Shown in pieces: positions 43,565-60,226 of a DNA stretch of 64,000 nucleotides. The position numbers and the translations under genes are program-made. Position 1 is the stretch's first letter; every line of letters begins with the position of its first letter. The notes beneath the pieces are model-generated. The model saw nothing but the letters and a program-made list of their open reading frames with translations. It did no database searches and was not told the DNA's origin. Origin of the DNA: Pseudomonadota bacterium (GTDB taxonomy: Bacteria; Pseudomonadota; Gammaproteobacteria; Pseudomonadales; Cellvibrionaceae); the NCBI GenBank assembly GCA_040385335.1, contig JAZKHP010000021.1:68516-132515 (forward strand). The letters run 5' to 3'.

Positions 43565-45064
43565 TCATTTTGCAGGTAATGTCGAAAAATGTGGATCTAC
43601 AGATTGATAACTTATTAACATTTCATAATGCCACTTGCACACGTCATAAAGAGAGTCTTCCGAGTTAAATCCAATATATTCGAACAGTGCACGATTATTG
43701 CTCGATGCAACATTAGATGATTTTTTTGATAGGTAATCCATATTCATTTTCCATACCTCAATTGAAAATGCCATAGGGTTTTCAATTGAACAACGAATGA
43801 AAGGATCTACATACGGAAATACATAGGGTGCGCAAAAGGATTTGTTACAAGTCAAGCGAATTGTCAAGCCTGTAGATACTTCGCTGATAAAGAAATCACT
43901 GGCATCCAGTATTTCACACTTGTTGTTATTGATAAATGCTTTAGCGCCAAGAATGCGATAACCTCTATTTTGTAAAAAATCACGCACGAAATGAATGGTT
44001 CCTCCTGTGTGTATATCGCTATCGAATAGTGTGTATTCGCCTTTAGGGATTTGGGTGCATTGGTCGTCCAGTGAAATGTTTCCTGCGCGGGTTTTGTACT
44101 CCAATCCACCAATTCCAAAGATGTCAAATTCGCGTGAAATATGTAAATTAAACTGCGCGTGCGTATTGGCGTCCAGGCTGATAATAGATTTAATATTTTC
44201 TTCAACAAAAGTGCGTTTCTGTTGCCTGATATTCGCTTCGTTAATTGAAGCGAAATATGGTGCCAGTATTTCTGTAAGTTTTTTTTCCAGCGGATGGTTG
44301 TTAGTGCGTAAATGCAGATCTTTTTGTAGTAGGTTAACGGGGTTGGAGTTACTCCTAATCGCAGATGATGATGCATTATTGTCACCAGCAATAAATAGAA
44401 TTCGTTCATTGCTTAATGACTTATAGCGGGTAAATTCACTTTCATAACCTGGCCTGTTTACAACGACACAATGGCCGTGAATTTCAAAGCTGGCCGCAAA
44501 ACGGGCGTTGTCAGATCCACAAATATAAAATACCGGTATGTTTTGTCGCAAGTGCAGTGCAAGATAGGCTTTTAAGCGAGTTATGACATCGGTAAAGTTT
44601 ATTGCAACCTGGTTAAAAACTCCTTCCCAAGGATCGATACTCAGCCACGGAATATCTGCAATCGCTTTCTGAATGTATAAGATTCTATGGGTTATAGGAA
44701 TAAATGATTCCTTACACTTTCCGCTAACATATTCATCATGCCCCGGTGAGAGATAACCACCCAAAACATTCCACCCCTGATTCTCCAATGTATGTTTTGC
44801 TTTATCCATAATCTCAATGTGCCCGTCATGAATTGGACAGAAGGAGCCTGTTGTTAGTAATACACAGTCTTTTTGCGATTCTCTCTGGGGATTATTAAAC
44901 CCTAATGGTGTGCATAGAACATTTAATGTGTCATCCAAATTTATGAGCTGAGCATGGGTGTCAAAGAAAAAACCAATTTCTTGAATATAGGCTAGTCCGT
45001 AGCGTTCAAATAAGTCAGCATAAAAAGCATCTCGTGTTATTTTCCAGTCAAGTTCTATAGTCAT
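43565..45064 (-). CDS. NMN/NaMN adenylyltransferase-like nucleotidyltransferase fused to a C-terminal type I PRTase-like domain
   Basis: 'TTGSFCPIHDGH' (HxGH), 'YLSPGHDEYV', 'WLSIDPWE', 'YICGSD', 'VNRPG', 'SSSAIR'; C-terminal 'YTLFDSDIHTGGTI' resembles the PRPP-binding loop. Confidence 0.7.
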   Translation of the reverse strand: MTIELDWKITRDAFYADLFERYGLAYIQEIGFFFDTHAQLINLDDTLNVLCTPLGFNNPQRESQKDCVLLTTGSFCPIHDGHIEIMDKAKHTLENQGWNVLGGYLSPGHDEYVSGKCKESFIPITHRILYIQKAIADIPWLSIDPWEGVFNQVAINFTDVITRLKAYLALHLRQNIPVFYICGSDNARFAASFEIHGHCVVVNRPGYESEFTRYKSLSNERILFIAGDNNASSSAIRSNSNPVNLLQKDLHLRTNNHPLEKKLTEILAPYFASINEANIRQQKRTFVEENIKSIISLDANTHAQFNLHISREFDIFGIGGLEYKTRAGNISLDDQCTQIPKGEYTLFDSDIHTGGTIHFVRDFLQNRGYRILGAKAFINNNKCEILDASDFFISEVSTGLTIRLTCNKSFCAPYVFPYVDPFIRCSIENPMAFSIEVWKMNMDYLSKKSSNVASSNNRALFEYIGFNSEDSLYDVCKWHYEMLISYQSVDPHFSTLPAK

Positions 45065-45078
45065 TTGGTGATACTTTC

Positions 45079-45855
45079 TTAAATAGCATTGGCTTCAAAA
45101 ATAATATCGGTACGGATAATTATTCTCGGTTCCTTATCTGCATGAGTTTGCACATCATGGCAGATCTTGTGATCAAAAATTAAAGCGTTGCCGGCAATTG
45201 CGCGCGCCTGACAAATAACTTCGTCAGCTCTTGCTTCCCTGAACCAATCGTCATGATTGCGACTCCAAATAGGTAAATTTTGTTGATCGTCGGAAATCAT
45301 TCGCGTCTCACCACCTATCCGCGAAGATGTTAAATAAATGACCACCGATTGCAGTGTTCGCAGTGAATCATCACTATAAATAAAAGCGTTATCGTAGTGG
45401 GGTAAATGTTTTCCTTCGCACTCATACTTCATAAAACGAAAAATAGGAGAGCACATGACGGGTTGCCATTGCCTGCGTTCTTTATCACCTTGCCACCAAT
45501 CTGTAGCGGACTTTTCATCCATCTTGCGTTCGCTTACATAAGGCTTAATTTTTTCCCAAATCTGTTTGGCGAGTTCAACCGACCAAAGCGTAGCTCTTGT
45601 TGAGCCGACAACTTCATTATCCATGATAGGTTTGCCCTGAACACCCACGGGGAAAAATTGCGGTGCCCTCGCGAATAATGCGATAAGTTGCTCGCATTCA
45701 TGAATGGAAAATAAATGCTCAACAATAGTCATAAGAGGACTAATGTGTGACGCCGCATGTTTGGCCTTGTCTAATTTTGGCACTTCGCGTGGCTCCCACC
45801 CGCCTGGCAATTGCGACATAATCGGTTTGCTTGTGAGTATGAGTGAATTCATCAA
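45079..45855 (-). CDS. 2-oxoglutarate/Fe(II)-dependent oxygenase (P4H-like)
   Basis: 'FRFMKY...PHYD' (HxD), 'SVVIYL', 'GGET', 'GNALIFDHKICH' (distal His), 'IIRTD' (2OG-binding Arg). Confidence 0.85.
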   Translation of the reverse strand: MMNSLILTSKPIMSQLPGGWEPREVPKLDKAKHAASHISPLMTIVEHLFSIHECEQLIALFARAPQFFPVGVQGKPIMDNEVVGSTRATLWSVELAKQIWEKIKPYVSERKMDEKSATDWWQGDKERRQWQPVMCSPIFRFMKYECEGKHLPHYDNAFIYSDDSLRTLQSVVIYLTSSRIGGETRMISDDQQNLPIWSRNHDDWFREARADEVICQARAIAGNALIFDHKICHDVQTHADKEPRIIIRTDIIFEANAI

Positions 45856-45894
45856 CTGTTCTCAGTGAAGTACTTTTTAATGTGAAGCGCCTAT

Positions 45895-46791
45895 TTAATT
45901 CCAGCCTTGAGGAGTAATTCGCTGCTGTACATCAATAAAATGAGCGGGATTTCCTACCTGATATTTATGTGCATTTTTTTTGTGACATGCTTCAATAGCT
46001 GCCGCATAGAGTTTAAATAAGTGGCGATCCTGTTCTTTTAAGCTTTCATCAATACTAATATTAAAGTCTTTCATTAGTTGATACATTTCCACAAACCAAT
46101 AGGGCGCACCTATCATTTCTTCATCTACCCTTCCATCCCATACATCTCCAGCGGGAATTGCGGCAATTATTTCTTCGGGAACATCTAATTTTTTTGCAAT
46201 TTGTATTATTTCTGATTTGTGCGCATCGGCAATCGGTTGCAGGTCTACCATTGCATCGGAAGCCTTGCCAAAAAAACCAATGTAAGCACCTTCGTCACGA
46301 TTAGTGGTACCAACGACAATCGATTTAAATCCTTGTTGCTGAAGCAAGGCTGCATGAAAATATAAATTGGGAGTGCGGACAATGCTAGCTAGCTGGCCTA
46401 ACGACCATGAATTTGGCAAAAAATCTTTGGTGAGCGTTGCGCAGTACTGGTCCAGTGTTGATGATAAATCATGAACATAGTAAGTAGAGGTAGCGGATAG
46501 CTCTACAACTTTTAATCCTCGTTCTGTTGCTATGGTTTGATTAGTGGTTCCGTTGCTGTAAATTGGCATCAACAAGCCCAGAATTTTTTTTAAGGGTGAG
46601 TTGGGTTCCTTTGCAGCAGCCAATAACAGCTTATAGGTAACTGCCGAATCAATACCGCCAGAAATTCCAATCACGCAACTATCCAGGTTATGCTGCGAAA
46701 AAAATAAATTTATTTTCTGAATTTTTTCTGCGATGTATTTATCGACTTCAAAGTTACGTTTTAGCTTGGTTAACAGAATTATTGCTTTCAT
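45895..46791 (-). CDS. nadE: NH3-dependent NAD+ synthetase-like protein (no glutaminase domain)
   Basis: PP-loop 'VIGISGGIDSAV', 'VGTTNRDE..YIGFFGKASD..VDLQPIAD.HKSEI', 'P.GDVWDGRVDEEMIG..Y', 'KNAHK'. Confidence 0.82.
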   Translation of the reverse strand: MKAIILLTKLKRNFEVDKYIAEKIQKINLFFSQHNLDSCVIGISGGIDSAVTYKLLLAAAKEPNSPLKKILGLLMPIYSNGTTNQTIATERGLKVVELSATSTYYVHDLSSTLDQYCATLTKDFLPNSWSLGQLASIVRTPNLYFHAALLQQQGFKSIVVGTTNRDEGAYIGFFGKASDAMVDLQPIADAHKSEIIQIAKKLDVPEEIIAAIPAGDVWDGRVDEEMIGAPYWFVEMYQLMKDFNISIDESLKEQDRHLFKLYAAAIEACHKKNAHKYQVGNPAHFIDVQQRITPQGWN

Positions 46792-47468
46792 TATTTGGCC
46801 TTAACATCAGGGCTGCGTTTACTTACTGTAACCTCTGAGAGCTAAAGACTTTGCCTCGTGCAGAGCTGTATCTATTGGGCCAGATTAGCAGATAAAAATA
46901 AATAGCGTCAATTTGCCAATAAGTTTTATGGATGTATAGTGTCATTTAGCCACCATCTGTGCAAGAATATGATTAATTCTTAGTCGTAGCTGAAGGTAGG
47001 TTGGTGCTGATGGGGCATGTATTGATGTAAGTAGTCAGCACTGATCCTGCGTGCGGTCTGGTATCCAAGAGCCGTAACCACTTTAGCTAAAATCTGTCAC
47101 ACCATTATTGCCCTTGATTTATAGAAAACGGTTGATAACCTTCGTGGGTTAGTCTTCAATCTCCGCGACTTTGGCGCTCGCGGCGCAAGTTCTGAAGCGA
47201 CCACTGCTATTGGCGGTGTAGCTCACCTGATAAATTTTATGGGACTGATAACTTTTCTGCTATTGTTGTCGCGCGGTGTCAAGACACGGTGGAGGTGGTT
47301 GGATTTTCAATTCCGGCCACATTCGTTACGGTATTTAAAATGGATGAGTTGTTGACAGAATATACTTTTGCAGAAGTGCGCAACCAGGCAGCTGTAGGAT
47401 AGTTTAACTAGGATCTTTAATTGAAATTGCCTTTCAGTGCAATCATCTTTGCAAGGAGTTATCAGCAG

Positions 47469-48272
47469 GTGAAAGAACGAAAATTAGCATTTGAAATAAG
47501 CGATGGCCGTATCCATACGCGCTCATTGGAAGTTCATATAGTTGATCATTGTAATTTAAGGTGCGCAGAGTGCTGTTCGCTTTCGCCATTGCTTCCCGAG
47601 CGCTATGTAAAGCCGGAAGATATGCAGAAAGACTTGGCGCTTGCTACAGCAGTCTTAGCTCCAGATTATATAAAGCTGGTGGGTGGTGAGCCCTTGCTGC
47701 ACCCGGATATTCTTGAATGCTTACGCGTAGCCAAGCCTATGGCGAAGACATTATCGGTGACCACTAACGCCATCTTGCTTGAACGCATGAGCGACGAATT
47801 TTGGCAATTGGTGGATGCTTTAACGATATCGATCTATCCTTCCCTTAAGCTCGATAAGGTGATGCAACATGTTTATCGTAAAGCTGAGGCGTTCAATGTA
47901 ATACTCAATATTAAAAAGCAAGATACCTTTGTCAAAATGACGCACTGGGATGCAGTTACAGATGAACAGGAAACAAAAGCAATATTTTCCAGCTGTTGGT
48001 TAAGGGAGCGTTGTCATATTGTTGATCGGGGACGCTTTTATTTATGTACTCGACCACCACACTTCCACACATTTTATGATGGCAAAAAAGCCTTTCTTCA
48101 GGACGGAGTGGAGCTACACAATAAGCCTTCGTTATTACATGAAATTTATCAATACTTAACTCGCACCAAACCACTCGATAGTTGCTCTCGCTGTACCGGG
48201 GGTACTGGTGAAGAGCAGCCTCATATAATGATGACTAAAAATGAAATCATTCAAAGGTTGGAGCTGAAATAA
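47469..48272 (+). CDS. Radical SAM enzyme with a Cys-rich C-terminal (twitch/SPASM-like) extension
   Basis: 'CNLRCAEC' (CxxxCxxC), 'LVGGEPLLHP', 'VTTNA'; C-terminal 'SCW..RCH...YLC...SCSRC'. GTG at 47469 follows an AGGAG RBS. Confidence 0.88.
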   Translation: MKERKLAFEISDGRIHTRSLEVHIVDHCNLRCAECCSLSPLLPERYVKPEDMQKDLALATAVLAPDYIKLVGGEPLLHPDILECLRVAKPMAKTLSVTTNAILLERMSDEFWQLVDALTISIYPSLKLDKVMQHVYRKAEAFNVILNIKKQDTFVKMTHWDAVTDEQETKAIFSSCWLRERCHIVDRGRFYLCTRPPHFHTFYDGKKAFLQDGVELHNKPSLLHEIYQYLTRTKPLDSCSRCTGGTGEEQPHIMMTKNEIIQRLELK

Positions 48273-49316
48273 ATGCAACTGATTGCGAGGGGTGATCCAT
48301 TTTCTGTATTCCCCTATTACTATATTTCGGGTAGTGTTGGCCACGGAAGTACCATTTCTTCCATTGTGACTGCCCATGGTTGCGAGCAACTCGATGCTCT
48401 GGGGATAAAGCAATATTTAAATAAAAATCCCGATGATATAAGAACCTGTTTTCAGGAAATAAAAAAACTCCCCCCTAATTGTGATCTGCTGTTGGAAAAC
48501 GGTGAATTAACCCTTAGATCACAAGAGCCAATAATATCTGACAATGACAATCTTTTTGCGTTACTCGTTCAAGCATTGCGCAGAGATACAGCTAAATACT
48601 CGCGTTGTGCTCTTGCGCTGAGCGGGGGAATTGATTCCGCAATGATTCTCGCTTTAATTAAAGAAGCCGCAATAAATAATGTTGAAATCTATACGCTTGC
48701 CACGGGTATACAAGAGTATTGTGAGCTGGAAGTGACGAAACGAACTGCACGCTATTATGGTGTTAAGCTCAACGTAGTTCAGGCAAGCCAAGCAGATTTT
48801 GTTAATGCCTTACCCGATGCAATAAGCAGTTGTGAAACGCCACTGTATAATCTGCATCCTGTTTCAAAATTATTGCTGGCGCGCGCCATGAAAAATAATG
48901 GAGTCGATTGTATTATTACTGGCGATGCCGCAGATCAAGCATTCAGTGGCTCGGTTGCCAATAATTATTTGCCTATTGTGGGATCAATCATGCGCGGTGA
49001 AGGAATGGGTTTTGCATCCCCATTTTTTGATAAGCAGGTTGTTGCTTTTGGTTTATCGGTGATGGATTCTGATAAGTCTGCGCTGCGAAAATTGGGTCTA
49101 TCACTGCTGCCCGAGTTTTTACAGCACCAAAAAAAACAACCGCGTCTCGCGCCTGCGATGAATGTTAATAATTACTGGAATCAAAAATGTATTGATCAAA
49201 TTGCAAAGCAATTAAACCTGCAGCCAGATCTGCATAACGATGCATTAAAAATGCTTTGGACCACACTGGGAATGTTGGTGCACACTATCTGCGAAAAAAA
49301 ATCATGTGCGGCATAG
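48273..49316 (+). CDS. AsnB-like ATP-dependent amide ligase lacking an intact glutaminase domain
   Basis: PP-loop 'LALSGGIDSAMI', 'ITGDAAD', 'SPFFD'. N-terminus keeps only remnants ('RGDPFSVFPYYY', 'IKKLPP'); no Cys at position 2. Confidence 0.75.
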   Translation: MQLIARGDPFSVFPYYYISGSVGHGSTISSIVTAHGCEQLDALGIKQYLNKNPDDIRTCFQEIKKLPPNCDLLLENGELTLRSQEPIISDNDNLFALLVQALRRDTAKYSRCALALSGGIDSAMILALIKEAAINNVEIYTLATGIQEYCELEVTKRTARYYGVKLNVVQASQADFVNALPDAISSCETPLYNLHPVSKLLLARAMKNNGVDCIITGDAADQAFSGSVANNYLPIVGSIMRGEGMGFASPFFDKQVVAFGLSVMDSDKSALRKLGLSLLPEFLQHQKKQPRLAPAMNVNNYWNQKCIDQIAKQLNLQPDLHNDALKMLWTTLGMLVHTICEKKSCAA

Positions 49317-51079
49317 CTGGTATTGTCAACTATCGTGCACTGGATGTAGATCTTGAGCCAAGAGCCAGGATCATGTGCGATAAGCTTTACCATAGAGGTC
49401 CGGACGAACAAAATATTATTGCTTTCCCGAACATTATTATGGTTCATACGCGCCTTGCGTTGCTTGATTTAGCGCGTGGACAACAGCCATATGTCTCCAC
49501 AGATCAGCGCTATGTTATTAGCTACAATGGTGAAGTATATAATTACAGAGAGCTTCGCGCGCAATTAGAAAAATATTGGTTATTTAATACTGATTCAGAT
49601 ACTGAAGTGATACTCGCTGCTTACGTATATTGGGGTGAGTCTTGCTTAAATTATTTTAATGGTATGTTTGCATTTTTTATTTGGGACTCATTTAAAAATG
49701 AAGGTTTTGCTGCAAGGGATTTGTTAGGAATAAAGCCGTTTGTTTACCAATATAAATCTGGAGAATTTATATTTGCCTCTGAAGCAAAAGCTATAGTGGC
49801 GATACAGCCTGCTTCCCCCATGGTGAATCACAGTGCGATTATCGAATATATAGCAGCGCCTTATTTTTCTGGCGTAGAGACTTCCTTATTCGAAGGGCTT
49901 GAATATTTGCAGGCGGGGCATAGCTTAAAAATATCGAAGCAAGGTATCTATTCAAAACAATGGGGCGATTATGAGTTGTCTGCTTCATTAACTGAGAATA
50001 AAAGCACCACCGAAGAAATGTCCGAATTGCTGCTTAACGCAGTACAGCAAGCTATGATTTCTGATGCTCCGGTTGGGGCATATTTGAGTGGGGGATTTGA
50101 CTCAACGTTAATTACGGCAATTGCCAATAAACATGCGGAAAAAAAGCTTGGCGTTTTTACTATTAAATTTACCGATCAAGATAAGTTCGATTACAATAAC
50201 TCACTCATTGTTACTTCAGACGATACTCCCTACGCAATTCGCGCTGCAAAACAAATCGGCGTTAAGCAGCGCATTATCTGCGTGAATAGATCGGAGGTCA
50301 TGGATACCATTAAGAAAATTTCTTGTACTAATGATGCACTACCCGTTTGGGAGCAAGAAATTGCCCAGCATCATTTGGCTCGTATTGCTGCACTGGATTA
50401 CAAAGCTATTTTAACTGGTGATGCTGCGGATGAAACTCACTACGGCTATCCATTTTTATTGGATGCGCAGGTAACTGCATCTCCTGCAGCTATTTTGCAG
50501 CGCTTTTCTGTACCGCCATTGAAGCCGGAATTGAAAAATAATTTATTAGCTTTTTTTGATGATAAATATAAAACCCTAACCAAGGCAGCAGGGCATAGTT
50601 GGACAACGCCCTTGGATAGACATTTGGCAACGACTTATCTTATTGTTAAGCGCTGGCTACCGCGCTTACTGCATAACGGCGATGTGCATGCTATGCAACA
50701 TTCGCTTGAAGCCCGCGTTCCCTTTGCGGATATTCATCTTCTCAATATGGCAAAGAAAGTTCATCCTGCCAGCGGCTATTGCAATGGTACCGAGAAATGG
50801 CTGCTGCGCCAAAGTGCCAGGGGTTTACTTCCTGAAAGTTCGCGACTAAGAAAAAAATCCGCTCTACCAAAAGATCAGGGAACAGGAAAATTATACAAAG
50901 AAGCTGCAATAGCTTTGTTTAACTCGCATAAGGTTTTTCTTGAGAGTTTTTTTGACATGAAGCAAATGCAGGCGTTGTGTCGCTCCGATACTCTATTGAG
51001 TGAACAGCAACGTGCATTATTATTTCGTACAATATCTTTGTGTCATTGGTGTGATTACTATGGGGTTAATATTCGTTGA
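49304..51079 (+). CDS. Asparagine synthetase B-like glutamine amidotransferase
   Basis: 'MCGIAGI' (Ntn Cys), 'HRGPD', 'YNGEVYN', 'SDTEVIL', 'ARDLLGIKP', 'YLSGGFDST', 'TGDAADE', 'LEARVPFAD'. Confidence 0.9.
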   Translation: MCGIAGIVNYRALDVDLEPRARIMCDKLYHRGPDEQNIIAFPNIIMVHTRLALLDLARGQQPYVSTDQRYVISYNGEVYNYRELRAQLEKYWLFNTDSDTEVILAAYVYWGESCLNYFNGMFAFFIWDSFKNEGFAARDLLGIKPFVYQYKSGEFIFASEAKAIVAIQPASPMVNHSAIIEYIAAPYFSGVETSLFEGLEYLQAGHSLKISKQGIYSKQWGDYELSASLTENKSTTEEMSELLLNAVQQAMISDAPVGAYLSGGFDSTLITAIANKHAEKKLGVFTIKFTDQDKFDYNNSLIVTSDDTPYAIRAAKQIGVKQRIICVNRSEVMDTIKKISCTNDALPVWEQEIAQHHLARIAALDYKAILTGDAADETHYGYPFLLDAQVTASPAAILQRFSVPPLKPELKNNLLAFFDDKYKTLTKAAGHSWTTPLDRHLATTYLIVKRWLPRLLHNGDVHAMQHSLEARVPFADIHLLNMAKKVHPASGYCNGTEKWLLRQSARGLLPESSRLRKKSALPKDQGTGKLYKEAAIALFNSHKVFLESFFDMKQMQALCRSDTLLSEQQRALLFRTISLCHWCDYYGVNIR

Positions 51080-52272
51080 AGAAAATTTTATTTATTGTTA
51101 TTCCAGAAAATGGACATATAAACCCTTACATAGGCGTTGCTAAACATCTGCAAGAAAAAGGTTTTAATGTTGGGTTTTACTCGATGCACGATATATCTAC
51201 ACAATTGCTTGCTGCAGATCTCAATTGCTTTGTTGGAGAATTCATTGCCCCGCCACAGTATAGTAAAAATCATGGCAAACAATTTGCCGCAAACGTTAAG
51301 GATGCGCAATGGTTGAGATCCTGGATAAAGGAGCTATTGATTGATGGTGCAGAAGGTGGAATTGCAAACATTAAAAAAGTGTTAGACAGTTTTAACCCTG
51401 ATCTTGTCATTACCGATCCAATGATTTATTCGGCTGCAATAGCAGCAACGCTTAAGAAAGTAAAATGGGTAGCCATTTCAAATTCGCTTAATCCTGTTAT
51501 CCATGCCGAGATAAAAAGTGAGTTGTTAAATACGGTGCAGTGGCTTGATCCCTTTCGCAAAAAATTATTTCAGGATTATGGAATGGATATTCAGTGCAGC
51601 GGCTGCGATATGCTTTCTCCGTATTTAAATATTGCCTTTGTTACAGAGGAGCTTGTTGGTTGCGGCCACACAAAAGTTAATCTCGTTGGTCCCTCAATAC
51701 CGCAAGGTCGACGCGGTGATGAACAACCATTTGACTGGAAGCCGCTGGCAACTGAAGTGCCTATTATCTATATGTCCTTTGGTAGCCAAATTTACTATCA
51801 ACCTGAAATGTTCAAAATAGTATTTGCAGCAGTTCGCAATCAGCCCATTCAGCTCATTGCCGTTGTCAATGAGCTTATGCTTTCTGATGAGCTGGGCAGC
51901 ATACCTGTGAATGTTATTCTTACCCATTACGCACCACAGTTGCAGTTACTACCTAAAGCGTCCGTGATGATTACTCACGGCGGTGCCAACTCTGTTATGG
52001 AAGCCATTTATTATGGTATTCCCATGTTGATTAGTCCTATTTGCAATGATCAATTTCATCAAGGCTTTTTCATCGAGCGCAATAATATTGGCGTGCAGCT
52101 TGATTTAAATAATGCAACAGTCGAACAATGCCGGAATGTTTTAAATAGACTTTTGCGCAGTGCGGTAATTCACAATAATATGGCTCGCATTTCTCAATCT
52201 TACCAAAAAGATGGAGCATTAAATGCGGCAAATATTATCGCGGATTTTATTGCCAGGGATGAGCAGCATTGA
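51076..52272 (+). CDS. GT1 (MGT/UDP-glycosyltransferase family) glycosyltransferase
   Basis: 'GHINPYIGVAKHL', 'IYMSFGS', PSPG-like 'APQLQLLPKASVMITHGGANSVMEAIYYGIPML..PICNDQ'. TTGA overlap with the upstream gene. Confidence 0.9.
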   Translation: MKKILFIVIPENGHINPYIGVAKHLQEKGFNVGFYSMHDISTQLLAADLNCFVGEFIAPPQYSKNHGKQFAANVKDAQWLRSWIKELLIDGAEGGIANIKKVLDSFNPDLVITDPMIYSAAIAATLKKVKWVAISNSLNPVIHAEIKSELLNTVQWLDPFRKKLFQDYGMDIQCSGCDMLSPYLNIAFVTEELVGCGHTKVNLVGPSIPQGRRGDEQPFDWKPLATEVPIIYMSFGSQIYYQPEMFKIVFAAVRNQPIQLIAVVNELMLSDELGSIPVNVILTHYAPQLQLLPKASVMITHGGANSVMEAIYYGIPMLISPICNDQFHQGFFIERNNIGVQLDLNNATVEQCRNVLNRLLRSAVIHNNMARISQSYQKDGALNAANIIADFIARDEQH

Positions 52273-53234
52273 TTCCTTTAGTGATTACTGCAAAAAATGA
52301 AGAAAAGGGTATTGCGCAATGCCTTTACTCAATTTTAAGTTCGGTTGCGCTTATTGAGAATTCACATAATATATATTTCGATGTGATAGCCGTGCTTGAT
52401 GATTGCACCGATAACACCGAATCCATAGTGCGAACATTTTCGCGAATTAAAATATTAAAATCCTCTGGTGGAATTGTAACTGCACAGCGAAAATTTTACG
52501 AAGCAACCAATGCGGATTTTATTATTTTTTCTGATGCTGATATTTATGTAGAAGCACAAGCTCTGTTAGCAATTGCAGAGGTAATGCTAAAAAATGCCGA
52601 CCTTCGTATTGCGTATCCTTTAAAGCATCCCTTAAAAACATTAAAAAATAGTATTCTTGCTAAAGCGTTGTACGTATATAACAAGCACAACGGCTTTCAA
52701 ACAAAGCGGCATTACTTTAACGGCAGGCTGTTTGCCATTAGGAATTGGTTTATTCCTTCTGTTGACGAACTTCGAGAATCGATACAAAAGTTGCCGGTAT
52801 GCAAATTTTATTGCTATGAAGAGGGAATTAGAACCGATGATATTTTTCTATCGCGATTTATTTTAAACACTTTTGGTAGAGATTCTATTAAGGAAGTATC
52901 TTCGGGAGCCATATATTATCGTCCGCCTGAAACATACCCTGGTATGTATCGTACCTATAGGCGCATGCGAATGGAGATAGAGCGATTAAATAATTTGTTG
53001 CCAGAAACCGTTCCTGCGCATCAGCAAAGCGGCATCAGACAGTACGATTGCCAAGCTATAAAAAATGCAAACTTTATGGATGTATTTTATTGGTATATAT
53101 TTCGCTGTGCTTTGCAAATATGCAAGGTGCATTATGTTATTGAACGGTTTTGGTTTCAGAATTTTGCAACGAGGAGATGCCCCGCGTGGGAAACAGTAGA
53201 AGAAAGCAAGTTGCCAATACACATAGAGTTGTAA
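52269..53234 (+). CDS. GT2 (GT-A fold) glycosyltransferase
   Basis: 'LVITAKNEE', 'LDDCTDNT', DxD in 'IIFSDAD', 'RTDD'. TTGA overlap with the upstream gene. Confidence 0.82.
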   Translation: MIPLVITAKNEEKGIAQCLYSILSSVALIENSHNIYFDVIAVLDDCTDNTESIVRTFSRIKILKSSGGIVTAQRKFYEATNADFIIFSDADIYVEAQALLAIAEVMLKNADLRIAYPLKHPLKTLKNSILAKALYVYNKHNGFQTKRHYFNGRLFAIRNWFIPSVDELRESIQKLPVCKFYCYEEGIRTDDIFLSRFILNTFGRDSIKEVSSGAIYYRPPETYPGMYRTYRRMRMEIERLNNLLPETVPAHQQSGIRQYDCQAIKNANFMDVFYWYIFRCALQICKVHYVIERFWFQNFATRRCPAWETVEESKLPIHIEL

Positions 53235-54028
53235 TTCCGGAAATTACGCCACTCGAAATATGGGACTCTATAACGCCGCAAGGTATTTTATGGGATTCAA
53301 TGTATAAGCAGGATTTTCCTGAAACCCTTAAAAATGTTATTCAACAAATTCACGCTGGCTTGGCGGTGACGGCATCGAAACTGGAAATCAATCCCATTTC
53401 AAGGGCTTTCGATGCATTGTATGTTGCGGGTGGCGGCGCTCTCGATCCTCGCATTATTAATGCCCTTAAGCAGTTATCTGTTCCAATAATCGTTGCTCCG
53501 GATCCTGTTTTTTCTGGGGTTCCTGGCGGGAATAAAATTCTTGCCAATCATGGGCTGGAAGGGATTGTGATTGATCTTGGACAAACTCAAATTAAAATAG
53601 CTAACGCTGGCGAATTGCATACTTTTAAAAGGGATTTTGCTGCAATCCCCATTCGCAGTGAAACAGAAAGCGAGCAAGATGCTGTCCAGCTCCAATCATT
53701 TGTACGCTATGTTAGTAGCAGTATTGCGGAGACTATAAAAAATACAGTAAAGCCAAAAGGAATAGTGTTGGCGTTACCTTGTGATATAGATAATGACGGA
53801 GTTCTGGGTGGAAGTTCATACGCAGGCATGAAAGGGAATGCGGATTTGGTTGACTCAATTATCCATCATGCAAATTTAGAAGATGTACAGGTGTTGCTGC
53901 TGAATGATGCCGAGCTTACTGCTGCCAGTGCTCTTCACGATAAAAATGTTATTAAGTTTAATAAAATTCTTGTTATCACGCTTGGCTTTGCGGTTGGTGC
54001 AACAATATTGGAGCCAAAATGCAATTAA
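53186..54028 (+). CDS. ROK/sugar-kinase-like (actin-fold) protein with unusual motif order
   Basis: 'IVIDLGQTQIK', 'LPCDIDNDG', 'LLNDAELTAA', 'ITLGFAVGA' correspond to ROK motifs. In-frame GTG at 53186 lies 9 nt after GAGGAG. Confidence 0.72.
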   Translation: MGNSRRKQVANTHRVVIPEITPLEIWDSITPQGILWDSMYKQDFPETLKNVIQQIHAGLAVTASKLEINPISRAFDALYVAGGGALDPRIINALKQLSVPIIVAPDPVFSGVPGGNKILANHGLEGIVIDLGQTQIKIANAGELHTFKRDFAAIPIRSETESEQDAVQLQSFVRYVSSSIAETIKNTVKPKGIVLALPCDIDNDGVLGGSSYAGMKGNADLVDSIIHHANLEDVQVLLLNDAELTAASALHDKNVIKFNKILVITLGFAVGATILEPKCN

Positions 54029-54912
54029 CGAAACTCTATATTTCACCTCACTTTGACGATGTAGTTTTTTCCTGCGCGGGTAAAATTATTGCTGATGTTA
54101 AAAATGGTTTTAGGGTTGTTGTAGTAACCGTCTTTACAAAAAGTAATACGCAAGATTTGGCAATCTATGAAGCACGAAACGCAGAAAATGACGAGGCACT
54201 TTTAATTCTGGGTGCTGAGGGGATTAATTTAGATTTTTTAGACGCACCCTACCGCCATCCATTTTATAATTCATTTCGCACGCTGCTACTTGAAAGGCAT
54301 CCTTTAGATGATGTGGAGTATGTTTCGAGCATTGGAGTTGCTTTGAATGATTTATGCAATGTTATATCGCCGATGGAAGTTTATGCTCCTTTAGCTGTTG
54401 GGAGTCATATTGATCATCGCCTTTGTTTTGAAGCTACAGTTAATCATCTATCTTATCCAATCACTTTCTATGAAGATCGCCCCTATTCCTTTGCCGCTTT
54501 TGCGGTTGAAAGCAGATTAAAATCCTTGGGTGTGAGATTAGCTACAGGCCAAGAGTTATGGGAAGTTATGACACCGGAAAATATAACTAGACATCTATCA
54601 AGCCTTAGCCAATTGGTGTTTGTTGATAAATACTTGCCACCTGGAGAAACAAGAAATGAGTGCTTCGATTTAATAGCTAAAAATCTATCGGTTTTACCGA
54701 GTTTACGGTATCAAGGAGTAAAAAATATTTTCACTTACTCAATGGCTGAAGCAGAAACTATTAGTCAGGCCGTAAATGCTTACCAATCACAACTTGCGGA
54801 TTTTTGCGGAAGCTCACAGCAATTTCTATTGCAGACAGAAAATTATTCTAGTCAGATAGCGGGTAGTTCGCAGTACTCGGAACGATTTTGGAGTTTTAAG
54901 AAACTAAATTAA
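54019..54912 (+). CDS. PIG-L/LmbE-family N-deacetylase
   Basis: 'ISPHFDDVVFSCAG' (HxDD), 'LDFLDAPYR', 'GSHIDH', 'FYEDRPY', 'YQSQ'. Confidence 0.88.
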   Translation: MQLTKLYISPHFDDVVFSCAGKIIADVKNGFRVVVVTVFTKSNTQDLAIYEARNAENDEALLILGAEGINLDFLDAPYRHPFYNSFRTLLLERHPLDDVEYVSSIGVALNDLCNVISPMEVYAPLAVGSHIDHRLCFEATVNHLSYPITFYEDRPYSFAAFAVESRLKSLGVRLATGQELWEVMTPENITRHLSSLSQLVFVDKYLPPGETRNECFDLIAKNLSVLPSLRYQGVKNIFTYSMAEAETISQAVNAYQSQLADFCGSSQQFLLQTENYSSQIAGSSQYSERFWSFKKLN

Positions 54913-55255: not shown

Positions 55256-58200
55256 ATGGATATACCATTTCTTGATCATGACCTCTACTCCGAACACTAC
55301 AACGAATTACAAAGCCTATATCAGCAGGACTTGTTTCGTGATTTATGGGATAAGGCAACGCGCTGGTGGGGGCATGATCCTTGGCCCACGGCGACGCTGG
55401 AGTTATTGCGCGCACGCACGCTGAGTAACTTGGGTAATGATCGCCCGTCTGATGCATTGCTCTGGCGACTCTGGCGTAAACATCCGCAGCTACCTGGGCT
55501 TGCCCCGCTGGTGGCTGGGCTCTACCGCCGTCGCAGTCCCTTGGTTGCCTTGCGTATGCTGCCAGTTATTAAATCGCGCGCTCAACCCAATGCTAAAGAT
55601 CAAGCCTCTTTGCAGCGAGAAAAAGCAGAAATACTCATGCGCTTTCGTGATTTTGCTGCTGCAGAAGAGTGCTTGTCTGACTTGGAGGCATGTGGTGGCG
55701 ATTGGCATTGGGTGTCACTAGCTGGAGTTAAGTATGCGCAAGACGATTACCCGCAAGCGTTAATTATCCTCAACAAAACCCTCGAGCGTAATCCGCGCTA
55801 TCGTCCCGCGCTCTTGTTTAAAGCCAATATTTTGCAGTTACAACAGGATTTGACTCAGGCTATTGCTGTACTTGCTGATTTCTGGCTCATTAGTCAGTCA
55901 TTTTGGACCGGGCAATTGTTGTGCGGTTTTTATATCGAGAATCAGCAATATGCACTTGCCTATCAATGCCTGGAACGGTTAAAAACCTTGCCTGCTGTTT
56001 CCAGCAGGGATTCGGAGCGTTATTTACGTGCACTGCAAGCAGATCTGTTGTGCGCCGAGCAGCGTTACGACGAAGCGCTTAACTATATCGAGCAAAAAAG
56101 TTTTTTTGGCAAGTCGATTGTCGATTCTATTAAGCGATCAGTGAGTAGTAAAACGCGCAAGGTGCTTGATGTACCTTTCGTGCGTCAGGCTAATATGACC
56201 TGTGCCCCTGCGAGTATCACTGCAGTTGCTGCTTATTGGAAAGTAAATGTCACTCAGGCCGATGTGATTGAAGCTATTTGTTATGGTGGCACCCAAGCGG
56301 TAGATGAGCGCCGTTGGTTGGAAGAAAACGGTTGGTACGCACAGGAGTTCCAACTGAATTGCGCTACCGCTAAAAGCCTTATCGATTTGGATGTGCCAGT
56401 TTTGCTGGCCACTGTCGAGCCGGGTAGCGCCCATTTACAGGTATTAGTGGGTTACGATGAGGCCCTGGGCACCTACTTATTGCGTGACCCTTATTATCGC
56501 CGCTTGCAGGAAATGCTGATCGAATCCAGCCATGAATATTATGCTGCCTCCGGGCCGCGGGCTATGGTCATGGCGCCACTTAGTTATAGCGACAAAATCA
56601 AGTCATTAAATCTTCCTTCCGCCGCACTTTATGATTGCCTTTATCAATTAAATCGCGCCCTGAATGTTAATCAGCGCGAACAGGCTGTTGCTCAATTGCA
56701 GCAGGCCTGCCATTTGGATTCGCATCATCGTTTAACGATTACCTGTGAGCGTGCGCTGGCATTTTACGATGGCGACGAAACACGAATCCTGGCAGCTACT
56801 GAAAAGTTGCTAGCGCTTTTCCCCAAGGATGTGAACTTGCAATTGAGCAAAGCCAGCAGCCTTTATGCGCTAGGTTCTAGTAAACAAATGCTGGATTATT
56901 TACAGCCTATAGTAGAGCAAACTAATAGTCATTTTTTGGTGAAAAGCCGGCTTGCCGATCATTTGCGTCGTGATCACCGCCAACTGGTGCGCATTGAATC
57001 GCTTTACAAAAATTTGTTGAGGGCCAATCCGACTTACACCGAAAATCTCTATGCCTATGCTGGTGTTTTGTGGGACAAAGGTAATTACGCAGAAAGTTAT
57101 CAACTGTATCGCTTTGCTGCGTGTCTTGAAGATACTAACGAGCGTTATACCGAAAGTTTTTTCAAGGCTGCTCGGTATCATAATGATACGGAAAAAGGTT
57201 TAAATTTTCTGCGCGATAGATTTAAGCGTTTTGGCAATAAGTCCTCTGGTCCTGCGATATCGTTGTTTAATGCCTTGGACAGTCTGGAATTAATCAACGA
57301 AGGGCTTGCGATACTCGATCAAGCCATAGCCTTGCGCCCGGATGATGGTTGGATAAAGGTGTTTGCTGCGCGCAAATTGCTTAGCCAACAACAGACTAAT
57401 CGGGCTTTGCAATTGGCGGAGCTTGCTAAGCCGTTGGTTAGCGAAGTCCGTTACAACGAATTGGCAGCTGAAATTTTTGAATGCCAGTTAAATCCCGTTG
57501 CCGCTATTCAATGCTTTGAAAAAATTCTTCAACTGGAACCGCTGAATACCAAAGTTAACCGCAGCATGATGCGCGTGTTAATTGAGTCTGGCGAGCGCGT
57601 CAACGCTGATGTATTTATAGCGCAACAACTCGCTCGTTTTCCCGATAACTCTATGCTGCTTGAGCTTTATATTGATTGGCTCGATAAAGGAGATTATCAG
57701 GCTCGGGCCAGTGCTTATCAGCAATTTATTCAGTACCACCCCATGGATGCATGGGGCTTTCGCGGGTTAGCTGAGGCATTGTGCGATCTGGATTTATACG
57801 ATGCTGCTCTTAAAGCCGCAGAGGAAGCAATTGCGGTGGCCAATAACAGTAGTGCCAGCCATTGTCAGCATGGCAAAGTGTTGCTGGCCAAACAGCAACG
57901 CGAGGCTGCTCGTCAAAGTTTTCGCAAAGCCATTGAGTTGTCTTGCGATTACACTTATGCCTATCCATTGTTGATGCAATGTGGTTTCAATCACACAGCC
58001 CAACAGGAAGATTTACGTTTTATTTATGAACAACTAATGGCTCAGGTGAGTTATGGCGATGGCCTGCTCGAATACCAAAAAGTGGCCTGGCAACTTTTGT
58101 CTGCTGCAGAAATAGTTCGGTTTCTCGAGCATGCATTAGAGGTGCGGCCAGACCTGTGGCACTCCTGGGTCGCGCTTACTCTGGCTTATCGCACTCACGG

Positions 58201-60226
58201 GGACAACTTGAGAGCCCTACAGATTATTGAGCAGGCAGCGCAACGCTTCCCCTTGCTGCCGAGAATGTTTCTGGAACTGGCCGAAAGCCATACCTTGTTA
58301 AATCAATTGGATTCTGCAGAGCAGTATTATCGTCATGCGTTGCAACTATCGCCTGGCTGGACTACACCAGCAAATAATCTCTGCGATTTATTAGAACGGC
58401 AGGGACGTTATGAAGAGGCTATAGACATTCAGAAAGCCAGTATTGCACGCAGCCCCCTGTCTTCTACGCCTTATGGTTATCTCGCCGATTTGTTAATACG
58501 TGAGCAGCGCATTGATGAGGCAATTGCGGCATTGGAGCGCGCGCTGGAAGTAGACCCTCACTATTTATGGGGTTGGCACACTCTGTATAAATTGCAAAAT
58601 GAACGCGCGAGCGGGCAACCAGTGCTTAACAAATTGATATTGGTTTGCAAGACATTTCCCAACGATGGTGCTTTGGTACTCGCACATGTCAAGTTACTTG
58701 AAGATGATGTCAAGGCGAGCACAATACTCGCCACTTTTTTAGAAAAAAATCCGCATCATATTGATGTATGCATTCAGTACGTAAGATACCAAGTAGGCCT
58801 TGGACATATTGACCATGCGCTGCAATTTACCAGTGAAGCCTATTGGAATAATAATCGCCCGCTCACTATTTTGGCGGCTGAAGCGCAAATCTATGCTGAG
58901 AAACGCGAGATGGCTCAAGCAATAAAAAGCATGGAAGAAGTGGTACACATTAATTCAAATTTTTATGATGGCTGGCGTTATTTGGCGCGCTGGTATTGCG
59001 ATATAAATGCAATAGAGCAGGCTCAGTCCGCGATTGATCACTGTGTTAGGCTATATCCTAATGATCCCGGAGTGCTCTGTTATGCTGCCGAGCGGTTGCA
59101 GACGATTGACGGTGATAAGGATCGAGTTGGCAATTTATTGCAGCGTGCGTTCGAGCTTAACCCTATCAATCAGTATAACGGCTTGACCTATATTGATTAT
59201 ATTCTTGAGCGCGAAGAAATTGATCGTGCCGCAGAAGCATTAGCATTATTGGAGCGTCACCAAAGTAATATTTACACCCGCTACCGAGCGCTCTTGATTC
59301 ATATTGCGCGGGAAGAGTCTGCCGCTGCGCTCGATATATATCGTAGTATTTTACAAGATAAAAATAACTCCGATTGGCTCGTACAAAATGCTTGGGAAAA
59401 GCTGGGTAAGGTGAAGCAAGGGACAAGTGCTGCTTCCATTGTGCGTGAACTGCGCGCGAGTGATCAGCTGCAGGGAAGTGGTGCTGGATATTCTCTTGCG
59501 GAGTTTGAATTGCAGCAACTGGGATTCAAAAAATTCGAACAAGAATTATTGAAAAAAGTATTGAAGGATGGTTTTGACAAGCGTTATTTGGAAGCCTACA
59601 TCCGAAAATTAATCGACACTGAAGCACAATTGCCGTGGAAAATTATTGAAAAGTATCAATCGTTGTTGAGCGATGATTTGAAAAATTGGGGTTTGGTAGG
59701 CTATCTGCATGTAGTCCAAGGTCGCTGGGGTGAAGCCGTCAGCTGGTTTAAGCGCGGTTCACTGCTAACACAAGCCGAGGCCGGGTCGCTCTATTTTTAT
59801 TCGATAGCGCTGCGTGAAACTGGTCAATGGGAGAGGGCCGCAAGTGTAATGAGCGATGCGTTTAAGCGTGAGCCGGATGCTTATCGTGAGGATATTGTTG
59901 TTTGGTATGCGCTGGACCAATTGCTTGAGTTGCGCACAGCCCCGCTGGGAGAGCTGGATTATATTCGTGCAGACCAGCTTGCTAGTCTTAGCGCCTATCC
60001 TTTTAAGCTTGTCCAGCTTCTCGCCAAAACAAAAGCAAAATCTTTTGATCAGACACATATGGAATTCGCCGGTGATTATCTGGAGTGCAAGCAGACATTC
60101 CGCAAAGTCAATTCCTTATCCTGGCGGCATGCGCGAAAATTAGCTCGACGTTTGTTTGTGAGTGGTTTACAACAGCAAGGGTTTGCGCGTTGGCGTTGGT
60201 TGTTAAAAATTGCCAGTCGAATTTAA
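55256..60226 (+). CDS. 1656-aa TPR-repeat protein with an embedded C39-like cysteine peptidase domain
   Basis: 'VPFVRQANMTCAPASI' (Gln and Cys316), 'AHLQVLVGYD' (His393), 'LRDP' (Asp411), flanked by many TPR-like helical repeats; no signal peptide. Confidence 0.8.
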   Translation: MDIPFLDHDLYSEHYNELQSLYQQDLFRDLWDKATRWWGHDPWPTATLELLRARTLSNLGNDRPSDALLWRLWRKHPQLPGLAPLVAGLYRRRSPLVALRMLPVIKSRAQPNAKDQASLQREKAEILMRFRDFAAAEECLSDLEACGGDWHWVSLAGVKYAQDDYPQALIILNKTLERNPRYRPALLFKANILQLQQDLTQAIAVLADFWLISQSFWTGQLLCGFYIENQQYALAYQCLERLKTLPAVSSRDSERYLRALQADLLCAEQRYDEALNYIEQKSFFGKSIVDSIKRSVSSKTRKVLDVPFVRQANMTCAPASITAVAAYWKVNVTQADVIEAICYGGTQAVDERRWLEENGWYAQEFQLNCATAKSLIDLDVPVLLATVEPGSAHLQVLVGYDEALGTYLLRDPYYRRLQEMLIESSHEYYAASGPRAMVMAPLSYSDKIKSLNLPSAALYDCLYQLNRALNVNQREQAVAQLQQACHLDSHHRLTITCERALAFYDGDETRILAATEKLLALFPKDVNLQLSKASSLYALGSSKQMLDYLQPIVEQTNSHFLVKSRLADHLRRDHRQLVRIESLYKNLLRANPTYTENLYAYAGVLWDKGNYAESYQLYRFAACLEDTNERYTESFFKAARYHNDTEKGLNFLRDRFKRFGNKSSGPAISLFNALDSLELINEGLAILDQAIALRPDDGWIKVFAARKLLSQQQTNRALQLAELAKPLVSEVRYNELAAEIFECQLNPVAAIQCFEKILQLEPLNTKVNRSMMRVLIESGERVNADVFIAQQLARFPDNSMLLELYIDWLDKGDYQARASAYQQFIQYHPMDAWGFRGLAEALCDLDLYDAALKAAEEAIAVANNSSASHCQHGKVLLAKQQREAARQSFRKAIELSCDYTYAYPLLMQCGFNHTAQQEDLRFIYEQLMAQVSYGDGLLEYQKVAWQLLSAAEIVRFLEHALEVRPDLWHSWVALTLAYRTHGDNLRALQIIEQAAQRFPLLPRMFLELAESHTLLNQLDSAEQYYRHALQLSPGWTTPANNLCDLLERQGRYEEAIDIQKASIARSPLSSTPYGYLADLLIREQRIDEAIAALERALEVDPHYLWGWHTLYKLQNERASGQPVLNKLILVCKTFPNDGALVLAHVKLLEDDVKASTILATFLEKNPHHIDVCIQYVRYQVGLGHIDHALQFTSEAYWNNNRPLTILAAEAQIYAEKREMAQAIKSMEEVVHINSNFYDGWRYLARWYCDINAIEQAQSAIDHCVRLYPNDPGVLCYAAERLQTIDGDKDRVGNLLQRAFELNPINQYNGLTYIDYILEREEIDRAAEALALLERHQSNIYTRYRALLIHIAREESAAALDIYRSILQDKNNSDWLVQNAWEKLGKVKQGTSAASIVRELRASDQLQGSGAGYSLAEFELQQLGFKKFEQELLKKVLKDGFDKRYLEAYIRKLIDTEAQLPWKIIEKYQSLLSDDLKNWGLVGYLHVVQGRWGEAVSWFKRGSLLTQAEAGSLYFYSIALRETGQWERAASVMSDAFKREPDAYREDIVVWYALDQLLELRTAPLGELDYIRADQLASLSAYPFKLVQLLAKTKAKSFDQTHMEFAGDYLECKQTFRKVNSLSWRHARKLARRLFVSGLQQQGFARWRWLLKIASRI

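Follow-up and report, generated by a model that had tools for sequence, protein, structure and literature searches.

Gene structure and motif order

The window analysed here is a stretch of 64,000 nucleotides (nt) from a Pseudomonadota bacterium of the family Cellvibrionaceae (GenBank assembly GCA_040385335.1, contig JAZKHP010000021.1, positions 68,516 to 132,515 of the forward strand). The gene in question lies at window positions 53186-54028 on the + strand, as do all of its features and the other genes of the seven-gene cassette (47421-54912) in which it is the sixth. The open reading frame (ORF) translates to 280 amino acids (aa) followed by a TAA stop codon and, judged from the translation and its homologues, is in all probability a whole gene for a circularly permuted, ROK-like protein of the ASKHA fold. 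The start codon is GTG. The earlier note on this DNA had left the start and termini to a homologue alignment, in which the homologues likewise begin with MGNxRRKQ at this GTG; a GGAG sequence is found 11 nt 5' of it, and the longest open frame at this gene starts earlier, at 53150. The ORF shares 49 nt with the GT2 glycosyltransferase gene upstream and 10 nt with the PIG-L gene downstream. The first 12 residues (53186-53221) form a basic tail, MGNSRRKQ, that is kept in gamma-proteobacterial and some other members of the family, is disordered in the structural model described below (predicted local distance difference test [pLDDT] < 50) and is absent from the GT2 fusion protein P0107; its coding sequence lies wholly inside the overlap with the GT2 gene.

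Read from the N-terminus, the protein carries HAGLAVTASKL (residues 56-66), FDALYVAGGG (75-84) and VPIIVAPDPVFSGVPGG (99-115), followed by IVIDLGQT (127-134), PCDID (198-202), NDAELTAA (240-247) and TLGFAVG (265-271), with the stop codon nine residues beyond. The translation reproduces exactly the order described in the earlier note. Expressed as ASKHA/ROK motifs, this order is rotated: the chain opens with E-x-W-D, A-G-G-G and G-G-N-K-I-L and continues with IDLGQTQIK, LNDAELTAA and TLGFAVGA up to the stop. The elements that end the canonical ROK/ASKHA chain (the long helix, IVxGGG, the final strand and the AGxxGAA helix) are N-terminal here, whereas those that begin it (DxGxT, NDA and the GxGxG hairpin) are C-terminal. 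The relative order of the DxGGT-type, NDA and LGTGxG-type motifs of ROK proteins is retained (D130-L-G-Q-T, N240-D241-A-E-L-T-A-A and T265-L-G-F-A-V-G271). The canonical succession of domain I, domain II and a final helix back to domain I is rotated throughout the family.

The counterpart of the N-half (residues 1-123; 53186..53554) in a canonical ASKHA protein is the final two thirds of domain II. This part runs from the strand 3' region through helices to strand 4', which carries the adenosine motif, and on to strand 5' and the last helix. Within the N-half, E24-I-W26-D27 (53255..53266) is, from conservation and hhalign, a candidate for the sugar-binding Glu motif of ROK proteins (ExGH or the Glu of GCxE), and A81-G82-G83-G84 (53426..53437) is the ADENOSINE motif, aligned with ROK IVLGGG and MreB LTGGGA. 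The segment GVPGGNKILAN, from G111 (53516..53548), aligns with the last helix of ROK and MreB proteins, is modelled by AlphaFold2 as a helix (112-121) and is the equivalent of the canonical C-terminal helix AGxxGAAxL. HGLEG (H122-G126; 53549..53563) lies between this helix and the predicted strand 126-131, as the linker from the old C-terminus to the old N-terminus.

Beyond the linker, IVIDLGQTQIK (127-137; 53564..53596) is the PHOSPHATE 1 hairpin, a DxGQT variant of DxGGT that aligns with ROK IDLGGTK. The element LALPC...GGSSY, from L195 (53768..53821), aligns with the ROK G.PG.v loop and represents strand 4 plus the loop that covers the sugar site of ROK kinases; C199, S211 and Y212 within it are family-specific. 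NDAELTAA (53903..53926) matches the ROK motif NDANAAA in HMMER alignments to 1woq, 2qm1 and 6jdc, with D241 as predicted catalytic base and N240 as predicted sugar-binding residue. Finally, LVITLGFAVGA (262-272; 53969..54001), aligned with TLGTGIG of 1woq and 2qm1, is the PHOSPHATE 2 hairpin, strands 1'-2' of domain II.

Comparison with ROK kinases and other ASKHA proteins

The permutation was examined by profile-profile comparison in hhalign, using a 154-member family profile and a ROK panel of 43 canonical members encoded in the window's genome and its relatives (all of one order); the halves were compared locally. The C-half (127-275) aligns with ROK 6-143 of 302 with a score of 62.5 (P 3.3e-10, probability 96.7%), and the N-half aligns with the C-terminal half of ROK with a score of 24.5 (P 9.4e-4). 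The uncrossed pairings scored 13.4 (N-half against ROK N-half, P 0.11) and 17.0 (C-half against ROK C-half, P 0.04), and controls for the N-half gave 10.5 when reversed and 6.6-16.3 over 40 column shuffles. In the N-half alignment, helix 44-57 falls on the long helix preceding ROK IVLGGG, FDxVxLxGG falls on P..IVLGGG, and the last strand and helix fall on ..iv.a..g..sgv.GAa.L. When the profile was rotated (C-half followed by N-half), positions 1-278 were colinear with ROK 3-302 over 260 columns (probability 97.8%, E 6.4e-12), whereas only 122-280 of the native-order profile aligned, with ROK 1-148. The crossed comparison is significant in both directions, which bears out the proposal of the earlier note that the last two ROK elements have moved to the N-terminus.

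Against the Pfam ROK model PF00480, the native protein has no match at E <= 1. An artificially rotated version of the sequence reaches 11.7 bits (E 0.19; the gathering threshold is 22.9 bits), and 12 of 25 rotated family members match at E <= 1, the best at 7.9e-5, all over model positions 4-139 only.

Likeness to other ASKHA families is concentrated in the N-half, where the resemblance of YVAGGGALDPRIINALKQLSVPIIVAPDPVFSGVPGGNKIL to the C-terminal ADENOSINE segment of MreB is visible by eye. The N-half matches MreB in BLASTP (E 6e-5, 32% identity over 79 aa) and in a profile-sequence hhalign comparison (probability 90%, E 1.7e-6; MreB 329-417 of a 426-aa frame), as well as PDB MreB chains (246-330 of 348) and MreB-sized frames in five related genomes. 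It also matches AnmK (273-320 of 382) and the BcrAD-type activase 7yyl (186-241 of 243). The C-terminal ADENOSINE segment of MreB, the BcrAD/HgdC-type activases and AnmK is shared by the N-half of the permuted protein; in those families it closes the chain, whereas here it opens it. The remainder of the permuted protein is ROK-like rather than MreB-like. All three nucleotide motifs (PHOSPHATE 1, PHOSPHATE 2 and ADENOSINE) are present and near-invariant, and each aligns with its ROK or MreB counterpart.

Such matches could be read as the mark of a chimera, in which an N-half from another ASKHA lineage (MreB- or BcrAD-like) was fused ahead of the N-terminal half of a ROK gene, so that no single ROK ancestor would underlie both halves; MreB does give the N-half a better score (E 1.7e-6) than ROK C-halves do (P 9e-4). 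However, no segment is better conserved among ASKHA families than the ADENOSINE region, so that a better MreB match is weak evidence of origin, and the ROK panel was narrow (43 proteins of one order). Nor does the break fall at a domain boundary: it is internal to domain II, following the PHOSPHATE 2 hairpin. Such a position is expected from duplication followed by truncation and awkward for a fusion of separate pieces, and over the 260 columns given above the rotated profile runs colinearly with ROK. We consider a chimeric origin improbable.

AlphaFold2 modelling with a 32-sequence alignment gave a mean pLDDT of 93.8 and a predicted template modelling score (pTM) of 0.91. The predicted elements are strands 12-14, 20-23 and 28-30, helices 35-38 and 44-57, strand 77-81 (AGGG), helices 83-94, strand 101-103 and helix 112-121; then strands 126-131, 135-140 and 143-148, helix 164-184, strand 192-197, helix 221-228, strand 235-240 and helix 241-249; and lastly strands 261-266 and 270-275. 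This order of secondary structure fits the ASKHA fold after rotation. In the model, the second domain takes its first two strands from the C-terminus and its remainder from the N-terminal 121 residues, which places the predicted cut in the chain within domain II, between strands 2' and 3', with the old termini bridged by H122-GLEG126.

In a Foldseek search of the PDB, the top matches to the model were the ROK kinases 1woq (rank 1), 3r8e and 3htv, with Lmo0178, MurK and Ppx/GppA also found. The ROK matches cover only about 170 columns with a template modelling score (TM) of about 0.4, values to be expected when a sequential aligner is applied to a permuted protein. Folded alone, the N-half keeps the same elements (pLDDT 92.2), and its sole high-probability Foldseek match is the ASKHA activase 7yyl_E (0.98, root-mean-square deviation 1.5 over 47 columns), with MreB entries next at low probability; this lends weak support to an ASKHA fold for the N-half.

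The same results bear on the idea that there is no permutation, and that the N-terminal 120 aa are an unrelated alpha/beta domain (Rossmann-, SIR2- or DRTGG-like) set on a truncated half-ROK. Weak matches of residues 47-108 to the SIR2-like protein 8j4u (E 0.04) and of residues 87-117 to DRTGG (E 0.09) would agree with it. These are weaker than the ASKHA matches, however, and were not reproduced in the fold search, in which the only probable match of the N-half was the ASKHA activase; the MreB, AnmK, activase and ROK matches all converge on one C-terminal ADENOSINE segment; and a half-ROK with an unpaired two-strand hairpin would not be expected to yield a pTM of 0.91 as a compact unit. We regard an unrelated N-terminal domain as very improbable.

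The protein belongs to a sizeable family. A word-indexed search found 54 homologues with identities down to 28%, nearly all 240-300 aa long; no precomputed Pfam domain is recorded for any of them. An exhaustive HMMER scan covered 1.84 billion representatives (clusters at 50% identity). Its yield at E <= 0.001 was 292 clusters, for the most part of 250-290 aa and all lacking a Pfam or NCBIfam match, with 188 reaching E <= 1e-10; among the matches listed, the motif order is colinear with the query in all 150, and nearly all are again 240-300 aa long. A profile word search for a canonical-order, un-permuted sister or a tandem-duplicated intermediate returned only the permuted family. The recurrence of one order across these homologues means that it is not chance, a local accident or a frameshifted fragment, the last being one of two outcomes that the earlier note had named as fatal to its proposal. 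Beyond the unusual motif order itself, nothing suggests that a normal ROK gene has decayed, been cut short by a frameshift or been misassembled: the 292 clusters represent six or more phyla and keep their frames intact and their catalytic residues and operon position conserved, and the genome has a separate canonical ROK gene. The probability of this reading is negligible, and the pseudogene or fragment idea was rejected on the strength of a homologue family with the same architecture.

Within the 154-member family alignment, the motif residues show almost no variation. In PHOSPHATE 1, D130 is kept in 153 members, G132 in 154, Q133 in 152 and K137 in 154, and R149 follows with 153. The NDA motif retains D241 in all 154 and N240 in 148; PHOSPHATE 2 retains T265 (146), G267 (153), F268 (118) and G271 (150); and the ADENOSINE glycines G82 and G83 are found in 154 and 152 members, respectively. 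E24 (134/154) and W26 (141/154) are followed at position 27 by D in 125, N in 12 and H in 4 members. P198 (151/154) and Y212 (150/154) are similarly conserved.

The 280-aa protein has no Pfam, NCBIfam or PADLOC match, save two matches below threshold, in which residues 54-111 align with the C-terminal part of anhydro-N-acetylmuramic acid kinase models. Hundreds of these genes are labelled 'hypothetical' because such matches are lacking. Few folds have been studied as much as that of the actin-like ATPases, which include hexokinase, Hsp70, actin and MreB. A full-text literature search returned no description of a circularly permuted ASKHA, ROK, actin-like ATPase or sugar kinase, and no family model, solved structure or paper describing the permuted family was found. 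The fold and chemistry are known; the topology is previously undescribed for the ASKHA fold, and the family is one of several hundred clusters without annotation. The permutation explains why profile libraries miss such genes, and a family model in the rotated order would annotate them at once. A conserved permuted family is also a natural experiment on the folding and closing of a two-lobed hinge enzyme.

Nearest relatives and predicted activity

The nearest relatives are ROK-type sugar kinases, particularly those without zinc, such as the Arthrobacter inorganic polyphosphate/ATP-glucomannokinase 1woq, which is the best match both by sequence profile (E 0.012 native, 0.0065 rotated) and, as noted above, in Foldseek. 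Like the permuted protein, 1woq and the 226-aa putative kinase 3lm2 have NDA followed by a T-L-G-x-G-x-G hairpin, lack the CxCGxxGC cluster and are small (about 230-280 aa). The permuted protein differs from them in its rotated order with termini inside domain II, in having DxGQT rather than DxGG(T/S), GFG rather than GTG and ExWD rather than ExGH, and in falling below the Pfam ROK threshold. With canonical ROK proteins of PF00480, exemplified by the glucokinases 2qm1, 3vgk and 3vov, the N-acetylmannosamine kinases 6jdc and 6q26, the allose kinase 3htv and MurK (8zo3), it shares a homologous domain I plus PHOSPHATE 2 hairpin (hhalign probability 96-97%), the catalytic Asp, the ATP motifs and a sugar-metabolism context. 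In contrast to these, its chain is permuted, has no zinc site and is about 20-40 aa shorter, and its gene is part of a cassette for biosynthesis, not of a catabolic sugar operon. In its D...K (+7) spacing, IDLGQTQIK resembles the IDIGGSGIK motif of polyphosphate glucokinases, a likeness that is not used as evidence here.

According to the earlier note, the GExGH/zinc module of ROK proteins is missing here. This holds for the zinc cluster: no CxCGxxGC(x)E cysteine pattern occurs within the 280 aa or the family consensus. Some accepted ROK-type kinases, 1woq among them, also lack the cluster. The glutamate motif, on the other hand, appears to be retained in the candidate E24-x-W26-D27. The sequence P-L-E24-x-W26-D27 is near-invariant and lies just after the new N-terminal strands, at the position predicted by the rotated order; its spacing is that of E-x-x-H in ExGH, with His at position 27 in the four members counted above. 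Global hhalign pairs E24 instead with the Glu of the ROK C..C.E (GCxE) motif. E24 is thus a candidate counterpart of one of two ROK glutamates, that of ExGH or that of GCxE.

The best explanation of the data as a whole, in which we have fair confidence, is that the gene encodes a circularly permuted, ROK-like kinase that uses ATP to phosphorylate a sugar intermediate made by the cassette pathway. The confidence differs between its parts. A permuted ASKHA/ROK-like fold is very probable. Kinase activity is proposed because the catalytic Asp and the ATP motifs are conserved, and from these residues the protein is probably an active phosphotransferase; that the predicted kinase acts on a sugar intermediate of the cassette is likely by a slight degree only.

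Under the proposed mechanism, the old C-terminal helix would have become joined to the old first strand through HGLEG, and new ends would have opened in domain II directly after the PHOSPHATE 2 hairpin (strands 1'-2'), leaving a folded protein that would still be a two-lobed kinase. ATP-Mg would be held by D130 (PHOSPHATE 1), the T265-G271 hairpin (PHOSPHATE 2) and G82-G83 (ADENOSINE). D241 would serve as catalytic base, and N240, E24 and D27 would hold a hydroxyl-bearing sugar substrate. The permuted kinase would work with the neighbouring glycosyltransferases, above all GT2, and its phosphorylated target may be a sugar or amino-sugar, whether an acceptor or donor precursor or the glycoside product. 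For the identity of the substrate, which the earlier note took to be probably a non-hexose, the operon context is the sole guide. The setting would be the pathway of a horizontally mobile seven-gene cassette for a small-molecule glycoside.

Several observations weigh against this explanation. The match of the N-half to ROK itself is weak (P about 1e-3), and its similarity to MreB is stronger. In HMMER searches of the PDB, the rotated profile did no better than the native one (1woq, E 0.0065 versus 0.012); HMMER local alignment fails to bridge the divergent middle of the protein, and profile-profile comparison was therefore needed. The proposed spatial equivalence of the modelled N-half to domain II rests on profiles, the order of secondary structure and partial Foldseek matches. 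The active site has also been altered, with DxGQT (Gln133) for DxGGT and GFG (Phe268) for the phosphate-binding GTG of PHOSPHATE 2, and with these changes phosphotransfer is not assured. Finally, the literature search found nothing on the cassette, which is without a characterised relative.

The altered site is also an argument for a protein that has the permuted ASKHA fold and is not a kinase: it might hydrolyse ATP, be a partner that binds a nucleotide or a sugar, or serve as a scaffold by which GT2 (and GT1) is activated or gated. The replacement of the phosphate-binding Thr of PHOSPHATE 2 by Phe (118/154) and of a PHOSPHATE 1 Gly by Gln (152/154), together with the obligate GT2 adjacency and the GT2 or GT1 fusions of some relatives (see below), would suit such a role, for which activases, TsaB and ROK repressors are precedents among ASKHA proteins. 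Set against this are the invariance of the catalytic-base Asp of NDA (154/154), with the PHOSPHATE 1 Asp and the ADENOSINE glycines likewise conserved, and the fact that the permuted protein carries no DNA-binding or other extra domain; moreover, its closest relatives in both sequence and fold are active kinases. A non-kinase function is accordingly a minority possibility, although a tangible one, and a permuted kinase remains our preferred reading.

The seven-gene cassette

The cassette begins with a radical S-adenosylmethionine (SAM) protein (47421-48272), an AsnB-like synthetase domain without glutaminase (48273-49316) and a full AsnB-type amidotransferase (49256-51079). These are followed by a GT1 (MGT/UDPGT-type) glycosyltransferase (51076..52272), the GT2 glycosyltransferase directly upstream of the permuted gene (52269..53234) and, after it, a PIG-L family de-N-acetylase (54019..54912), the usual downstream partner.

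The radical SAM protein has a solved relative in PDB 7wzv/7wzx/7x0b (E 1.3e-33 for 7wzv), which its depositors name only '4Fe-4S cluster-binding domain-containing protein'; no paper was found on 7wzv/7x0b. Further off are BlsE and MoaA, whose substrates are nucleotide-linked. The best PDB relatives of the PIG-L deacetylase are the glycopeptide pseudoaglycone deacetylases Dbv21 (3dfi) and Orf2* (2x9l), which belong to teicoplanin-type glycopeptides. When 18 loci and the window were inspected upstream of the radical SAM gene for a conserved small ORF that might encode the precursor of a ribosomally synthesised and post-translationally modified peptide, only the start of the radical SAM gene itself was conserved. 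Defence-system models returned nothing for the permuted protein, and for the cassette only a generic radical SAM core likeness to prokaryotic viperins.

In pathways for N-acetylglucosamine conjugates, such as mycothiol (MshA/MshB/MshC) and bacillithiol (BshA/BshB/BshC) biosynthesis, a glycosyltransferase is combined with a PIG-L deacetylase and a ligase that depends on ATP. The cassette resembles them in its glycosyltransferases, PIG-L deacetylase and carboxylate-activating AsnB-like enzymes; it differs from the mycothiol and bacillithiol pathways in having GT1 and GT2 rather than GT4, and in its extra radical SAM protein and permuted kinase.

A survey of one genome per species found 47 loci in Gammaproteobacteria, Verrucomicrobiota, Myxococcota, Planctomycetota, Acidobacteriota and Bdellovibrio. 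Named carriers are Brevifollis gellanilyticus NBRC 108608 in the Verrucomicrobiota and, in the Myxococcota, Nannocystis exedens DSM 71, N. bainbridge, Byssovorax and Polyangia. With cultured B. gellanilyticus NBRC 108608 and N. exedens DSM 71 among its carriers, the permuted gene offers a handle on a widespread glycoside-type cassette. The order of the seven translationally coupled genes of the window is repeated in about 25 loci, which come from six phyla. GT2 is directly upstream of the permuted gene in every locus with readable upstream sequence, except in a shorter variant of the cassette without AsnB and GT2, where the permuted gene follows GT1. Some Verrucomicrobiota have a second context (L054, 164-8909; also L064 and L067) consisting of a STAND-like AAA+WD40 protein (1122 aa), a small ORF, GT9, two unknown proteins, GT2 and the kinase, without a radical SAM, AsnB or PIG-L gene. 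Among 25 species of the window's genus, only 2 have the permuted gene, and the cassette is therefore accessory and probably mobile.

Two metagenomic proteins carry the permuted domain as a fusion. In P0107 (549 aa) it is joined to a GT2 that is 38% identical, over its full length, to the GT2 of the window, and in P0190 (797 aa) to a GT1 that is 42% identical to the window's GT1, with about 125 residues between the two parts that match nothing. The permutation may itself have been adaptive: chain ends at the mouth of the active-site cleft could let the kinase dock on, or fuse with, GT2 and GT1, giving a channelled kinase-glycosyltransferase unit at the core of a horizontally spreading pathway for a phosphorylated or amidated amino-glycoside metabolite in at least six phyla. 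We offer this as a speculative and, on balance, unlikely extension of the kinase reading.

Other genes were noted beside the cassette. In a myxobacterial locus (L001, 1-287), a HAD-family hydrolase, possibly a phosphatase, lies directly upstream of the radical SAM gene and would suit a phosphorylated intermediate. In the window, the region directly downstream of the cassette (55256-60226) encodes a protein of 1656 aa whose long TPR arrays enclose a Peptidase_C39_2 / AvrRpt2-like cysteine protease domain (residues 304-422); this protein is not conserved beside the cassette in other loci. On the other side, a divergent trio on the minus strand (43565-46791) encodes a NadE-like NAD synthase, a 2-oxoglutarate-Fe(II) oxygenase and an NMNAT-like adenylyltransferase fusion; NadE also adjoins the cassette in the closest relative (L048), and does not do so in distant loci.

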